Source: a virus
Reading direction: 5' to 3' (one strand)
IMG/VR virus record: IMGVR_UViG_3300048997_000353
Coordinates: 1 to 64,000 of that record
DNA: 64,000 nucleotides
Shown: piece by piece, positions 41,881 to 62,746 of the stretch
How the letters are laid out: each line of letters opens with the position of its first letter
Position numbering within the stretch: the first letter of the stretch is position 1
Position numbers and translations under genes: made by a program
Notes under the pieces: model-generated
Databases searched by the model: none
What the model was told of the DNA's origin: nothing
Seen by the model: only the letters and a program-made list of their open reading frames with translations

Positions 41881-43112
41881 AGGGCCGCGGCCCCTGCTTC
41901 CGTCGAAATTTGTTGGACGACTTCCTGCACAATGCCCATCGGATCGATCAAGACTGTATCATGAGAGATACAAATTTTGCGATACTCCGGCCAATCACAC
42001 GCCACAATAATTGTTGGACAATCCAGAACCTGAGCCATGCTGTGCGTGTGGACGGCCATCACATCATGCGCGCGCACGCGGCGCCCGCGGCTCTGCAGGG
42101 CTTGTTTCCACCATTGCCCGGGCGAATCATCGGAGATGGGCGTACCTGATTTGTAAGCCAAGCCCAGAATGCCCACATCGCCGTGCGGCTGGACCTGTTC
42201 GAGCACCGACCGGAGCATTCTCTTGTTCATGATGTCGGTGGCTTCGGCCATGGGAGACCGCTCGCCCACCATCGTTGCTACATACTGAAACATGCGGTTG
42301 TCGCGCGGAAAGCACGGACCGCCAAAGGGCAACCCCGCCCTGAGCGCGAGATGGCCCACGCGCGGATCCGCTCCGATCGCATCGAGAATCTTCTCCTGGC
42401 TCGCGCCCATCCTCTTCGCGACCAGTCCCACCTGGTTGGCAAAACTGATTTTCATGGTGATCGCGCAGTTGAGAGAGATCTTCGCGAGTTCTGCTTCGAC
42501 AAGAGACATATGCTTGGCCGGCGGATTGTGACAGACCATTTGCCGGTAAAGTTCTTCGACTTTCCGGCTGGCCGATTCACTGTCAGCGCCAATGAGCAAC
42601 AGCGACGGATGATGCAGATCCCGAATCACCGTGCCCAGCGCGATGAATTCAGGTTTGTACGCGAGGCCATAATGCTTGCCGAGCAGCCGGTCCAGGAGCG
42701 GTGCCGCCCGGCCCGCACAAAATCCTGGCGTGACCGTCGAATTCACGATGAACAAATAATTGCGTCGGCCCTGCCTGGCAACTTCCCGCGCCACGGCCGC
42801 AATTGCCGTGAGCAGGTGTCCGTGATCGAAACTGCCATCGCTCAAGCTGGGCGTGGCTGTGACGAACAAACATGCATCGCTCAACTGCACTGCGTCCTGT
42901 ACATTGATCGTAGCGGATAGATTATTTCTGACAGTGGATAGGTCCAGGTAATCCTGCAGATCAGGTTCCGCCACGGGAGCCTGGCGGGCGTTGACGAGCT
43001 GCACTTTCTGAATGTCCAGATCGAAGCCAACCGTCGGAACATCGGACGCCGCGAATACGGCCGCAATGGGTGCGCCCAATTTTCCCAAACCACACACTGC
43101 TATTCCGCGCAT
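41877..43112 (-). CDS. UDP-glucose/GDP-mannose dehydrogenase family protein
   Basis: GLGKLG Rossmann motif, NSTVTPG, PEFIALG, AELAK, KISFAN, GLPFGGPCFPRD, GLAYK. Confidence 0.93.
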   Translation of the reverse strand: MRGIAVCGLGKLGAPIAAVFAASDVPTVGFDLDIQKVQLVNARQAPVAEPDLQDYLDLSTVRNNLSATINVQDAVQLSDACLFVTATPSLSDGSFDHGHLLTAIAAVAREVARQGRRNYLFIVNSTVTPGFCAGRAAPLLDRLLGKHYGLAYKPEFIALGTVIRDLHHPSLLLIGADSESASRKVEELYRQMVCHNPPAKHMSLVEAELAKISLNCAITMKISFANQVGLVAKRMGASQEKILDAIGADPRVGHLALRAGLPFGGPCFPRDNRMFQYVATMVGERSPMAEATDIMNKRMLRSVLEQVQPHGDVGILGLAYKSGTPISDDSPGQWWKQALQSRGRRVRAHDVMAVHTHSMAQVLDCPTIIVACDWPEYRKICISHDTVLIDPMGIVQEVVQQISTEAGAAAL

Positions 43113-56800: not shown

Positions 56801-56875
56801 TGGAGCGCCTGGCGCGATTCGAACGCGCGACCCGCCTCTTTAGAGAAGGCTACTCTACCGCTGAGTTACAGGCGC
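56801..56875 (-). tRNA. Amber suppressor tRNA (anticodon CUA), canonical cloverleaf
   Basis: GCGCCTG TA ACTC AGCGGTA GAGT A GCCTT CTCTAAA GAGGC GGGTC GCGCG TTCGAAT CGCGC CAGGCGC T CCA. Confidence 0.92.
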
Positions 56876-56908: not shown

Positions 56909-57388
56909 TTATTCCAACGATTCGACCAAGCTGGTGCCCGGTCCGCACTCAAGCGCAGTGAGCTGCCGCCCACTACCGGGCAGAGAATTGGTGCGGACGG
57001 TAGGATTTTCACCCACACTTTCAGCTTTAGAGGCCGACGTGCCTGACACCGCGTCCGCAGTGTATTTCCAAAGTCGGTAGTTCTTCAGCGCCGCGCGCTG
57101 TTCCCCCGTGATCGGAGCCGTGGCAATCGCCGTAAATCCAAAGTTATTATCCGGTTCGGTCCAGAGGTAGTGCGGGATGTAGTTGGCTTGCAGCTTCGCC
57201 ACGACGCGGCGCAAAGCGGCCACACCGGGCAGGCCGACGACGATGATATTGGGAACGAGATCTTCGTTGGGGTGCTGGATGGCGGCGAGATGGAAAACTG
57301 CATGATTGGCTTGAACGATTTGGTGAGCGACAGGAATGTCCTGTCTAACGAAAACGTACACTGCATGGTCAGTGGGAATCTATGTCAT
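56909..57388 (-). CDS. Pth2-like peptidyl-tRNA hydrolase with an in-frame TAG at codon 3
   Basis: YVFVRQD...QIVQANHA...IIVVG...WTEPD...TAIATAP...LKNYRLW matches the PTH2 family pattern; the frame begins ATG ACA TAG ATT CCC ACT GAC CAT GCA GTG TAC. Confidence 0.82.
56932..56981 (-). ncRNA. 50-nt tRNA-like mini RNA with acceptor stem and ACCA end
   Basis: GCCCGGT AGTGGGC GGCA GCTCACT GCGC TTGA GTGC GG ACCGGGC ACCA: perfect 7-bp acceptor stem plus two hairpins. Confidence 0.6.
56989..57058 (-). tRNA. Atypical 70-nt tRNA with CUA anticodon (short D arm, non-canonical T loop)
   Basis: GCGGACG CG GTG TCAGG CAC G TCGGC CTCTAAA GCTGA AAGT GTGGG TGAAAAT CCTAC CGTCCGC A CCA. Confidence 0.8.
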
Positions 57389-57877: not shown

Positions 57878-58240
57878 TCAGTGGAAAAGTTTTGCGGAAA
57901 GTTTAAGTGGCGGGAATAATTTTGGCGAGCGCAGTAGTTCGATGATTGGCTTGTCTGCCTCTAGCACGTGCCATGTATCAGGCACGACTCCGTAATTCTT
58001 CCATGCCTTTTCCACCATGATGTTCAAATCCCTGATCGTGATCGTGGCTACTTCAATCGGACTCTTTCCCCACTTCCCACCGGCAAAAGTATAAACACCT
58101 CCGGAATCCACCGAATAATTCCCAGGTTTTATTTCGCTCGGAAAACTGAAGATCCGAAACGGCCAGGAGCGCGCAGCGGCCGTAGCTGCCACGCCGCCTA
58201 CGATCATGCCCAAGAATCCGCGTCTTGAAAGATTACTCAT
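57878..58240 (-). CDS. Protein with twin-arginine (Tat-like) N-terminus
   Basis: MSNLSRRGFLGMIVGGVAATAAA. Confidence 0.65.
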   Translation of the reverse strand: MSNLSRRGFLGMIVGGVAATAAARSWPFRIFSFPSEIKPGNYSVDSGGVYTFAGGKWGKSPIEVATITIRDLNIMVEKAWKNYGVVPDTWHVLEADKPIIELLRSPKLFPPLKLSAKLFH

Positions 58241-58433
58241 AGAGTTTCTCCACGCGCCGCAAGCAGGCGACGATTTCAGGTTCAACTTGTTGCAGCTTGA
58301 GTGTGCCCATCACCACGCGTTCGATATGACGGTTGGCGACGCCCAGCTCCGTCCAACATCGCGCGCCATCGCCTCGCGTTTCGGCGCGCAACTGGATTGT
58401 GTTCCGTCGTTGAATGTAATCTTCAAGAATCAT
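58233..58433 (-). CDS. Hypothetical protein
   Basis: 66-aa ORF overlapping the start of the next gene. Confidence 0.5.
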   Translation of the reverse strand: MILEDYIQRRNTIQLRAETRGDGARCWTELGVANRHIERVVMGTLKLQQVEPEIVACLRRVEKLYE

Positions 58434-58485
58434 GAATTTTAATGGGACGGTTGGTCACCAGTTATTCCCCGGCAGGGGTGACTCC

Positions 58486-58533
58486 ACGGTACGCCTTCAC
58501 AAGCAGCGTTTCGTCTCACGACTCTTCAGCCGC
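58486..58533 (-). ncRNA. Type I hammerhead ribozyme
   Basis: GCGG CUGAAGA GUC GUGA GAC GAAA CGC UG CUU GUG AAG GCG UA CCGU: intact CUGANGA / GAAA / GUH core with stems I-III. Confidence 0.85.
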
Positions 58534-58609
58534 TAATAACGCCGGGCCAGATGTCAGCAAGACCGTCCCGTCGCTGACCCACGGATCGTACTGCAACATG
58601 CCTTAAATT

Positions 58610-58685
58610 TGGTGGACCTGACCGGCTATGATCCGGCTGCCTCCTGATTGCAAAACAGGCGCTCTCCCAATTGAGCTACAGGCCC
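58610..58685 (-). tRNA. tRNA-Ala(UGC) with aberrant T loop
   Basis: GGGCCTG...TTTGCAA anticodon loop...GCCGG ATCATAG CCGGT CAGGTCC A CCA; G3:U70 Ala identity pair present. Confidence 0.88.
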
Positions 58686-58695
58686 ACAAGAAATT

Positions 58696-59001
58696 CTACG
58701 CTACTTCCGGCAAATAGATGATCCATTGGTGGCCCTGACTGCACCGCGCCGTTTTGTTTCCGAGATCGACGGTGGTCGCGAGATCAAGTGCGTGGCAAGT
58801 TGGGCAAACAATTTGCTCGGCTGGAATATCCTTGCCGGCCACGGTCACATATTGAATTTCCCGGTCCATCGCTTCCTCCACTTTCTCGACTTCTTCCGGA
58901 TCACACAGAAATGCTGAGTCTCCAATGTAAATAATTTCACGGTCGGCATCAGCGGCGTCGAACGTGAAAACTCCGTAGCGATCTGCCACGACGATTTTCA
59001 T
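58696..59001 (-). CDS. Hypothetical Zn-ribbon protein
   Basis: MKIVVADRY start; CPTC...CSQGH. Confidence 0.6.
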   Translation of the reverse strand: MKIVVADRYGVFTFDAADADREIIYIGDSAFLCDPEEVEKVEEAMDREIQYVTVAGKDIPAEQIVCPTCHALDLATTVDLGNKTARCSQGHQWIIYLPEVA

Positions 59002-61135: not shown

Positions 61136-61962
61136 TTTGCCTCCTGCGAAGCTTCCGGGGTTGGCGGCTCTGGATACCTGCGTTTAATTTCCTCTTTCTG
61201 TTGCCGGATGCGCTCGTCCATCTCAGGCGTCCGAATGACAACATGGGGAGTGGACGCAGTAACTTTACTTGCCGACGAAGTTGGCTGCATTGCTTGCTGC
61301 ATTTCCTCGGCCGTCATCGGCGGTCGTGTGCGAATCGAGTTGGCTTCGGGCAACTGCCGAACTGGCTCATAAAAACGCTCGAGTATTTTCTGGGCTTCCG
61401 GTCCGCTGATTAAATTCTGGTCACGCTCGATCTCTTCCTGATGCGCGTAGTTCTCCAGGAAATCTTTTTTGCGCCACACGAGGTCGGCCGTTGGACACTC
61501 CCACAAGAAAGCCATCCCGCCGGCAGCCTTGATGGCGCGCACAATTTTTTCATCCAAGGCGGGCGCCCGACGATCGACTCCAAGATCCGGATGAAAATAC
61601 TGCCCGATCCACGCGAGTCCCTCTTGCCAGGATTTTTCAGCGAGAAGGGCCTGCGCGGCACCGTTGGCGGTATCCACGAATTCAAACAGGTGAGCTGGCG
61701 TGGGAAACTGGCAAGCCGATGTTGGCTTGAAGGTGCTTTTCAGTTTCGCGAAGGCTGTTCGCAATCCCTCTTCGGAGAGATCCTTCGTCCTGCGATCCGT
61801 GAACAGGGTTTCAATCCAAAGATCAAAAACTGGCGCGCCCACAATTTTTTCAGTGAGCGTTCCGATCTTTAAGAGTTCCGTCCGAATTAAGGCCTGAGTT
61901 TTCGAGGTTCTGTCGAAGGACTTCGTCTGCATCTGGTCTGCCATTGGTTCTCCTTTTGCCAT
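61132..61962 (-). CDS. Replication partner (helicase loader/inhibitor-like, DUF6475-like)
   Basis: FPTPAHL...AIKAAGG...VWRKKDFLENY; directly after the initiator gene. Confidence 0.6.
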   Translation of the reverse strand: MAKGEPMADQMQTKSFDRTSKTQALIRTELLKIGTLTEKIVGAPVFDLWIETLFTDRRTKDLSEEGLRTAFAKLKSTFKPTSACQFPTPAHLFEFVDTANGAAQALLAEKSWQEGLAWIGQYFHPDLGVDRRAPALDEKIVRAIKAAGGMAFLWECPTADLVWRKKDFLENYAHQEEIERDQNLISGPEAQKILERFYEPVRQLPEANSIRTRPPMTAEEMQQAMQPTSSASKVTASTPHVVIRTPEMDERIRQQKEEIKRRYPEPPTPEASQEAK

Positions 61963-62746
61963 TCGTTTGGGCGGGTGGTTTATCTTCCCATTGATGGCCG
62001 TTCAAAAAAGTGGTGGGATGTGGAATGAATTGGAGTGTGCCGTCCGCGATGCTACTCGACCATTGCTCGGTCTGGCACCAGAGCTCGACCGCTTCGACCA
62101 CCTCGGGCCAGCGGTCGTCGGCCTTTACCTGGGACAGCCAGGCCTTGAGTGCCCGGCCCCGGTGGACCTTCCTCGGGTAGCTGTGCCAGAAGATCGAGAA
62201 CCCTGGCAAGTCAGGCTCGTTTCGGACACTTCTGTCGCCCGGGTTTTGGGCAATGGTTTTAGATTCTAATTCTTCATTCTTACTTCTTAATTCTAGAATA
62301 GGTGCGTCCTCAGTACAGTCCACAGTGCGTCCTCCATGCGTCCTCAGTGTCACGTCAGTACCGTCCTCAGTACACGGCTCATAAATTGGGTACTGCCATG
62401 ACGTTGAAGCATCAGCATTTAGGCGTTGTCCGATGAGTGCGCCGAATTCCGGTTCATACTTGTTGACCAAACACCTGTAGTTCCCCCTACATCCCGGTGT
62501 CCTAAACCTTTTTATGTACGCTTTTTGTTCGATACTCTCAAGGCTCCTCTGGATGTCCCGGAGGGTCGTTCCTCGGGGTGCCGAGGCCAAAAGCTTACCG
62601 GCCGAACCGGTCCAAATCCCGGTCTTGAAGTCGGCCTGCAGGTGGATCACGGTGTACACACCCAGGTCAAAAAAACCCATCTCCCCCTCTTCTAAATGCT
62701 GTTGGATACCGCGGCGGATTTTAATGAAACCCCTGGGGTGTGCCAA
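61850..62746 (-). CDS. Phage replication initiator (lambda O/replisome organiser-like)
   Basis: GFIKIRR N-terminus, wHTH region, FSIFWHSYPRKV...ALKAW...FIPHPTTFLNGHQWED; internal iterons. Confidence 0.85.
   Translation of the reverse strand: MAHPRGFIKIRRGIQQHLEEGEMGFFDLGVYTVIHLQADFKTGIWTGSAGKLLASAPRGTTLRDIQRSLESIEQKAYIKRFRTPGCRGNYRCLVNKYEPEFGALIGQRLNADASTSWQYPIYEPCTEDGTDVTLRTHGGRTVDCTEDAPILELRSKNEELESKTIAQNPGDRSVRNEPDLPGFSIFWHSYPRKVHRGRALKAWLSQVKADDRWPEVVEAVELWCQTEQWSSSIADGTLQFIPHPTTFLNGHQWEDKPPAQTNGKRRTNGRPDADEVLRQNLENSGLNSDGTLKDRNAH
62252..62373. repeat. Putative replication origin: 11-bp iterons plus AT-rich tract
   Basis: cgtcctcagta, agtccacagtg, cgtcctccatg, cgtcctcagtg, cgtcctcagta (62305-62372) next to AT-rich 62252-62300. 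Confidence 0.75.

Follow-up and report, generated by a model that had tools for sequence, protein, structure and literature searches.

Type I hammerhead ribozymes (Rfam RF00163, clan CL00010) have been described in prophages and phages, and the pseudoknots published for hammerheads join the loops or tails of stems I and II and involve no separate domain (PMC3088659). The role of bacterial and phage hammerheads has been open since thousands of them were found in 2011. We studied a hammerhead candidate in the first 64 kilobases (kb) of a 108-kb soil-phage record from IMG/VR (IMGVR_UViG_3300048997_000353), a 64,000-nucleotide stretch called the window below. Read on the minus strand, on which almost all genes of the window lie, the locus consists of tRNA-Ala(UGC), a spacer of 25 nucleotides (nt), the element, 10 nt, and the ATG of a 66-codon open reading frame (ORF). 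The element is a cassette of about 140 nt in which a standard type I hammerhead is grafted on one arm of a scaffold of about 100 nt that consists of two interlocked pseudoknots. The scaffold, which is absent from Rfam 15, is a candidate new structured RNA class. We estimate a probability of roughly 0.7 that the hammerhead is the maturation cutter of this knotted phage RNA and that the scaffold is a widespread cassette.

The hammerhead of the window shares with the described type I hammerheads the core, the G10.1-C11.1 and A15.1-U16.1 pairs, an N-U-H cleavage site, capped stems II and III, an open stem I, and a place between genes, on the coding strand of a phage operon. An earlier note, made from the letters of this DNA alone, had claimed a complete core, its stems and a GUA site. 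All are present on the minus strand and follow each other in the type I topology: 5' strand of stem I, core, hairpin II, GAAA, hairpin III, cleavage site, and 3' strand of stem I, with stem I open. Stem I has four base pairs (bp; GCGG/CCGU) and stem III five (ACGCU/GGCGU, 58509-58505 with 58495-58491, including A15.1-U16.1), and the cleavage triplet G-U-A lies at 58492-58490. With a type I descriptor, one site was found in the 108-kb genome; dinucleotide shuffles averaged 0.013 sites, and 3 of 300 had any. The evidence from the single sequence alone is only moderate. It was comparison with a family of related sequences that decided the matter, and by its pattern of conservation the structure near tRNA-Ala is a genuine type I hammerhead.

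The scaffold surrounds the hammerhead. Its helices occur in the order a-b-a'-c-(hammerhead)-d-c'-d'-b', where a and a' are the strands of P1. This order makes two H-type pseudoknots, P1 with b and c with d, and the c/d pseudoknot is nested in the last loop of the P1/b pseudoknot (Table 1). In the window, helices P1, c and d have 6 bp each and helix b has 8; the GUG of the 5' signature could in addition pair with CAU at 58445-58443 in a weak helix, P0. The scaffold is pseudo-two-fold symmetric, each half running from SCGYGG(A)G through a hairpin, whose loop contains a pseudoknot strand, and a joiner to a strand that base-pairs with the other half's loop. The 5' start CCGUGGGUCAGC almost duplicates the CCGUGGAGUCACC that follows the cleavage site.

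Table 1. Positions of the cassette, its parts and its neighbors in the window, and of permuted copies elsewhere in IMG/VR
Feature	Position	Strand	Remarks
tRNA-Ala(UGC) with encoded CCA	58610..58685	minus	ARAGORN; Rfam tRNA 54.6 bits; 25 nt upstream of element
Whole cassette, double-pseudoknot scaffold with embedded type I hammerhead	58444..58584	minus	leave-one-out covariance model match 58587-58435
5' signature CCGUGGG (consensus SCGUGGG)	58578..58584	minus	columns invariant or nearly so
P1 5' strand GUCAGC	58573..58578	minus	pairs with 58558-58553; both-side changes at 5/6 pairs
Pseudoknot strand b GGGACGGU	58562..58569	minus	in P1 loop; pairs with 58451-58444
P1 3' strand GCUGAC	58553..58558	minus	followed by invariant AUCUGG joiner 58552-58547
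Helix c 5' strand CCCGGC	58541..58546	minus	pairs with 58473-58468; 100% paired, compensatory changes
Variable A/U-rich linker GUUAUUA between c and stem I	58534..58540	minus	3-18 nt across the family
Type I hammerhead	58529-58490	minus	core to cleavage site; all conserved nucleotides, three stems, GUA site
Stem I 5' strand GCGG	58530..58533	minus	pairs with 58489-58486; covaries (columns 146/207: GC 33, CG 32, AU 4)
Core C3-A9 CUGAAGA	58523..58529	minus	columns invariant in 97-99 of 99 hammerhead-bearing rows
Stem II hairpin GUC-GUGA-GAC, GNRA loop	58513..58522	minus	column pair 136/183: GC 40, CG 25, UA 21, AU 13
Core G12 A13 A14 A15.1 (GAAA)	58509..58512	minus	
Stem III hairpin CGCU, loop GCUUGUGAA, GGCG, U16.1	58491..58508	minus	column pair 190/271: GC 44, CG 27, AU 19, UA 6
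Predicted cleavage site	58489..58490	minus	cut after A58490 (H17), before C58489 (N1.1); rule N-U-H/N
Stem I 3' strand CCGU	58486..58489	minus	opens conserved SCGYGGAGU segment (58489-58481)
Helix d 5' strand GUCACC	58477..58482	minus	pairs with 58459-58454; both-side changes at 5/6 pairs
Helix c 3' strand GCCGGG	58468..58473	minus	in loop of hairpin d (second pseudoknot)
Invariant joiner GAAUAACU, loop 3 of second pseudoknot	58460..58467	minus	invariant columns
Helix d 3' strand GGUGAC	58454..58459	minus	pairs with 58482-58477
Pseudoknot strand b' ACCGUCCC	58444..58451	minus	3' end of element; b/b' duplex
Next ORF, 66 amino acids, no known family	58233..58433	minus	ATG at 58433, 10 nt past last paired base of element
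Permuted copies (IMG/VR loci)	L059:389-547, L051:3302-3462, L069:1346-1504, L074:6802-6958, L120, L126, L142, L148		

An exact search of IMG/VR with the 22-nt core found no relatives. A loose core pattern returned several contigs that share far more than the core with the window, namely a 5' block of the form GUGGGU-helix-ACAUCUGGCCC and a 3' block of the form GGAGU-helix-CC..GGGGAAUAACUGG-helix. The core combined with GGGGAAUAAC occurs in at least 120 IMG/VR stretches. A pattern of the flanks only, in which the hammerhead is not required, identified 22 true members in GTDB, in which each prokaryotic species is represented by a single genome; of these, 19 have a canonical core, one is near-canonical and two have none. 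The genomes that contain them belong to Alpha- and Gammaproteobacteria, Actinobacteria, Firmicutes, Bacteroidota, Spirochaetes, Chloroflexi, Planctomycetes, Bdellovibrionota and Patescibacteria. BLAST with the window element added Mycobacterium phage Gaia, Arthrobacter phages Constance and Karkharias, an Enterobacter phage, and prophages of M. abscessus. The window has the signatures SCGUGGG, CAUCUNGCCC, SCGYGGAGU and GGGGAAUAAC in order within 58584-58461, and when 59 relatives, the window excluded, were used to build a covariance model, the element matched the model from end to end (model positions 1-152 of 152, 58587-58435) with 113.9 bits and E 2.9e-33, the E-values of this model being rough. 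The next-best match of the model in the window scored 10.1 bits, and the element is present once in the 108-kb genome.

The helices of the scaffold covary across the family. In an alignment of 70 members (A2), P1, c, stem I and d were 99.0% paired against 74.5% when partners were shuffled, and 373 cells had changes on both sides of a pair against 102 in the shuffles. The covariation score of these helices was 0.656 against 0.168, a value reached by none of 500 shuffles, and sliding the partner by 1-3 columns lowered their pairing to 35-45%. The b/b' helix is present in all 70 members with 5-10 bp (mean 8.0, against 5.0 with the tail of another member). Stems II and III covary as well. Among 107 model-aligned copies they were 95.8% paired with a score of 0.566 against 0.150, and slid controls for the three hammerhead stems fell to 33-45% pairing; this alignment is biased towards the structure of the model, and anchor-based counts for the two stems, which are independent of it, agree.

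The same 107 rows include 99 with a hammerhead. H17 is C in 56 or A in 38 and never G or U, U16.1 is kept in 99 of the 100 rows without a gap in this column, and N7 can be U, C or A. Such conservation bears the marks of a ribozyme under selection. Given the full core and the covariation of all three stems, the RNA should self-cleave after A58490. The family departs from the described type I hammerheads in several respects. Its stem I has only 3-5 bp and runs into the double-pseudoknot scaffold, which adds about 35 invariant nucleotides. At position 10.1/11.1, about 40% of members have A-A or U-U instead of the normal G-C, and the next two pairs of stem II covary strongly. Permuted and hammerhead-less scaffolds exist as well.

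Searches of Rfam 15 at 58300-58750 with E up to 10 found only the tRNA and a weak Hammerhead_1 match, and no family over the scaffold, be it a riboswitch aptamer, RAGATH, drum or another. Four other members searched against Rfam at E up to 1 had nothing on the element, including no hammerhead match. We found no description of the scaffold in the full-text literature that can be searched without a subscription.

The covariation also bears on the architecture that the earlier note had proposed, a hammerhead at the tip of a long rod about 40 nt 3' of the tRNA, with competing helices that could make cleavage switchable. Such a switch would time the release of tRNA or mRNA. The conserved element begins at 58584, 25 nt past the tRNA, and its 5' third (58584-58570) lies outside the span then annotated; the 10-nt distance to the next ORF was given correctly. 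The 136-nt "rod" has an ordinary fold energy compared with shuffles (z-score -0.88), and its helices cross as pseudoknots. A rod or terminator was rejected on this value and on the lack of a U-tract after the window element. All four pairings that had been noticed, GGGACGGU/ACCGUCCC, CCCGGC/GCCGGG, GUCACC/GGUGAC and GUUAUU/AAUAAC, exist in the window copy, and a nested minimum-energy fold that differs from the hammerhead fold makes misfolded states possible, as a switch would have it. The first three are conserved helices, however, kept together and covarying in every member with 99% pairing among the 70, which fits coexistence and not competition. The fourth is peculiar to the window copy: AAUAAC is invariant in the family, the linker opposite it varies, and the best pairing of linkers averages 3.47 bp against 3.33 in shuffled linkers. 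With an unexceptional fold energy besides, we consider a switch quite improbable.

Theta ribozymes, reported by Kienbeck et al. in 2024, are said to be minimal hepatitis delta virus (HDV)-like ribozymes adjoining phage tRNAs, many of them suppressor tRNAs. They cut at their own 5' edge, right at the 3' end of the tRNA, and have the HDV helix order P1-P2-P3-P3'-P1'-P4-P2'. The hammerhead of the window is likewise a small ribozyme, predicted to cleave itself, in a phage tRNA region, and its phage has a UAG-suppressor tRNA downstream. It differs in class, with the scaffold order a-b-a'-c-d-c'-d'-b', and its predicted cut lies 120 nt past the tRNA. An HDV-like fold was rejected because the helix order differs and no P3 hairpin occurs between b and a' (only CUU), and the HDV families of Rfam had no match in 58300-58750 at E up to 10.

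A subfamily of at least eight distinct sequences is circularly permuted. These copies begin with the hammerhead and its cut site. The 3' half (SCGYGGAGU-d-c'-GAAUAAC-d'-b') comes next, and a closing hairpin connects it to the 5' half (GUGGG-P1 with b-CAUCUGG-c). The pairings between the halves are kept and covary: all 6 positions of c/c' are paired, and b/b' has 7-9 bp. The hammerhead lies outside the fold, at the very 5' end, and would trim the scaffold at the same structural point at which it is predicted to open the standard form. Other copies lack the ribozyme. In scaffold L193 its place is taken by unrelated sequence, and the core of L216 is degenerate. L230:9850-9990 is a hammerhead-less permuted scaffold between two tRNAs; 5 nt separate its start from the upstream CCA, and 3 nt separate its end from the following tRNA. 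By this arrangement, tRNA-processing enzymes could make nearly the same ends in L230 as the ribozyme elsewhere. The standard arrangement can also be found wedged between two tRNAs, with gaps of 1 and 5 nt (L167).

A second, weaker copy (40 bits) occurs on its contig at L164:13282-13439. Its 3' half is nearly identical to that of the first copy, but the 5' halves are unrelated and the core, GUACGA, is degenerate. This second copy may be a duplicate in decay.

RNAs in two pieces or in permuted gene order include two-piece transfer-messenger RNA, permuted signal recognition particle RNA and tRNA genes, and non-circular hammerhead permutations (PMC10085705). The present family resembles them in having the same fold in two gene orders, one of which is expected to exist as two base-paired pieces. 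It differs in how the break is made, which is here predicted to be by an embedded ribozyme or, in L230, by tRNA processing.

We propose that the hammerhead cuts after A58490, so that the upstream piece would end in a 2',3'-cyclic phosphate and CCGUGGAGU would begin with a 5'-OH. This break would open the chain immediately before the conserved SCGYGGAGU segment, with the hammerhead as the probable usual tool. Because 18 intermolecular base pairs would remain (8 in b, 6 in c and 4 in stem I, about -30 kcal/mol in all; nearest-neighbor duplex energies -14.5, -11.6 and -3.6 kcal/mol, respectively), the two pieces are expected to stay together. This reading of the hammerhead as a maturation tool is supported by the permuted copies, which have the hammerhead at the 5' end with the same cut point, and by the tRNA-flanked L230. 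In the window the cut would also part the upstream RNA that bears tRNA-Ala from the message of the next ORF, which would then start with a 5'-OH buried in the knot. The earlier note had suggested such a separation of tRNA from mRNA. It holds as a prediction for the window, and for Gaia, which has the same layout, but a tRNA is no defining feature of the family, being upstream in 7 of 70 members and on either side in 15.

Several observations weigh against a maturation role or against the hammerhead itself. About 90% of the scaffolds keep the hammerhead, so that the scaffold could serve the hammerhead. The first set of members was picked with a pattern that requires the core, a bias that is partly offset by the flank-only and model-based sets. 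Ten relatives identified by their portal gene, three of them complete genomes, lack the element in a pattern search, which makes the element dispensable. Stem II in the window has only 3 bp. The nested minimum-energy fold has no hammerhead (-49.0 kcal/mol, against -41.5 with the hammerhead forced), and the nested-only model favors the alternative AGCGGC/GCUGCU by 7.5 kcal/mol; this model scores no pseudoknots and no tertiary contacts. Finally, the Rfam covariance search for type I hammerheads, which the earlier note had recommended, does find Hammerhead_1 at the site (E 0.013 for the whole genome and 0.23 for a 451-nt search), but with 17.4 bits it misses the gathering score of 34 that sets the cut-off for the described type I hammerheads. 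The Rfam model credits neither stem I nor the long stem III loop.

The low Rfam score and the close portal-gene relatives without the element would also suit a chance hammerhead-like motif in an ordinary intergenic spacer. This explanation is refuted by the 113.9 bits of the leave-one-out comparison with the family, whose more than 100 sequences covary, and we give it next to no weight. Among sixteen portal-gene relatives, nhmmer found no similar DNA, and synteny breaks at this point. The cassette is sporadic and probably mobile between phages.

The relation between scaffold and hammerhead could also be the reverse of the one we prefer. The scaffold would then be an elaborate tertiary domain, keeping stems I and II in place so that cutting is fast at cellular magnesium concentrations, and the cassette a processing site and insulator that gives the downstream mRNA a 5'-OH cap. 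It would divide polycistronic phage RNA, which in the window means parting tRNA-Ala from the message that follows, and stabilize late messages. The hammerhead is indeed retained in 19-20 of the 22 unbiased scaffold matches, the element is usually just upstream of an ORF (the window ATG follows after 10 nt), and the enrichment of terminase subunit, HNH endonuclease and methyltransferase genes downstream marks the starts of late operons. Natural hammerheads stabilized by pseudoknots are known (PMC3088659), and the stem II loops, which have a GNRA motif in 43 of 70 members, could dock on the scaffold. GNRA loops are about equally common in stem III, however, and about 35 invariant unpaired nucleotides and two pseudoknots far exceed the known needs of hammerheads for tertiary contacts. 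Hammerhead-less scaffolds exist (L193 and L230, with L216 degenerate), and the copies wedged between tRNAs (L167 and L230) have no mRNA to cap. We regard a scaffold in the service of its ribozyme as possible but doubtful.

The RiboJ insulators of synthetic biology are man-made and place a satellite-RNA hammerhead and a hairpin before a ribosome-binding site; the piece that is cut off dissociates. The cassette shares with RiboJ a hammerhead just upstream of an ORF that would remove upstream RNA and leave a structured leader with a 5'-OH, and RiboJ has no pseudoknotted scaffold.

A further alternative is that the scaffold is an aptamer that senses a ligand or protein and gates the hammerhead, as in allosteric ribozymes like glmS or the tandem of c-di-GMP-II with a group I intron. 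The many invariant unpaired joiner nucleotides (AUCUNG, GGAGU, GAAUAACU and CUAG) resemble a binding pocket, and since the hammerhead occupies one of the fold's loops, stem I could be under the control of folding. No Rfam aptamer matched at E up to 10, though, the neighboring genes are neither metabolic nor conserved, the hammerhead of the permuted copies lies outside the fold, and nothing points to a ligand. An aptamer is therefore improbable, about as much so as the switch discussed above.

In 15 of the 70 members a tRNA lies on the same strand within 400 nt, where 3.5 are expected (P ~1e-6); it is upstream in the 7 already mentioned and downstream in ten. The tRNA link is real yet not defining. 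The two ORFs downstream of the members are enriched in large and small terminase subunits, HNH endonucleases and DNA methyltransferases, and BLAST of the flanking proteins found no families conserved across members. In the window, the element is flanked by a replication-initiator region (61850-62746) on one side and by a suppressor-tRNA/PTH2 module and the portal gene on the other, and its location is the approach to the late genes. Downstream of b', 25 of 98 copies have U-rich runs, compared with 9% of control windows. A terminator at this point was rejected, since these runs sit where the A-rich 5' leader can pair (helix P0).

What the mature knot does is a separate question from how it is made. 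We give about even odds to an autonomous structured RNA that acts on a conserved host machine, somewhat more than a third to a cis-acting protective or insulating leader, and the small remainder to other functions. Most members have no adjoining tRNA and no obvious 3' end signal, and a leader of the downstream mRNA accordingly fits them better than a free small RNA, which is a further point on the side of those listed above. The presence of the cassette in phages of nearly every bacterial phylum suggests either a universal target or a role purely at the RNA level. In its fullest form, which we offer tentatively, the proposal is that the knot is an autonomous, pseudo-two-fold-symmetric phage RNA, matured by its own hammerhead or, in permuted copies, by tRNA-processing enzymes, that acts on a universal host machine or as a nuclease-proof particle. 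Such a machine could be RNA polymerase at the heads of late operons, or the tRNA-processing or translation apparatus. The put antiterminator RNA of phage HK022 is a cis-acting phage leader that acts on a conserved host machine. A compact structured RNA that heads long phage operons in many phyla would fit a universal target in the same way; the analogy is one of role only.

The family gives a concrete handle on the role of phage hammerheads, since here a hammerhead is tied to a defined and strongly conserved partner structure. It provides its own natural controls in the hammerhead-less copies, the permuted copies with the same predicted cut point, and the copy with tRNA in place of the ribozyme. 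The hosts of the phages that bear the cassette span Actinobacteria to Patescibacteria, and members occur in cultured, tractable phages, namely Gaia, which infects M. smegmatis mc2 155, and the Arthrobacter phages Constance and Karkharias.

The Gaia cassette (L231:1466-1621; NC_026590, ~77847-78002) lies in a stretch that is unannotated in its record. It abuts tRNA-Ser(cga), and gene 147 starts about 6 nt after it, an arrangement of tRNA, element and ORF as in the window. Its core is UUGAUAA instead of CUGAUGA, a compensatory U3/A8 variant of a kind reported for active natural hammerheads (Perreault 2011, PMC3088659). The Constance cassette (L232:1466-1620; NC_048092, ~42739-42893) is upstream of an HNH endonuclease gene at the right end of the genome. 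Annotated gene 68 of Constance extends over roughly 70 nt at the 5' end of the cassette, and the tRNA-like 3' fragment before the cassette (GGTTCGATTCC...) lies within gene 67. Both are small ORFs and are probably miscalled. For annotation in general, ORFs called across the cassette are probably wrong.

Of the genes around the window element, the 66-codon ORF ends in a stop codon that overlaps the start of the following gene (ATGAGTAA). We looked for relatives of the small proteins that flank the element and found none. Two tRNAs near the PTH2-like ORF (56909-57361) lie on the minus strand about 1.4-1.5 kb downstream of the element. The one at 56801-56875, just downstream of this ORF, was assigned the UAG-reading anticodon CUA by ARAGORN, and the one at 56992-57058, a match by Rfam only, is inside the 3' end of the ORF. 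The 120-amino-acid protein encoded two genes downstream of the element (57878-58240, minus strand) begins with a twin-arginine-like motif, RRGFLG..GGVAATAAxRxxPFRxFSFPSE. A search for its relatives found only proteins with this common signal-like N-terminal motif, which is nearly identical in otherwise unrelated small metagenomic proteins whose C-terminal parts differ. The motif may be a shared targeting or processing peptide.

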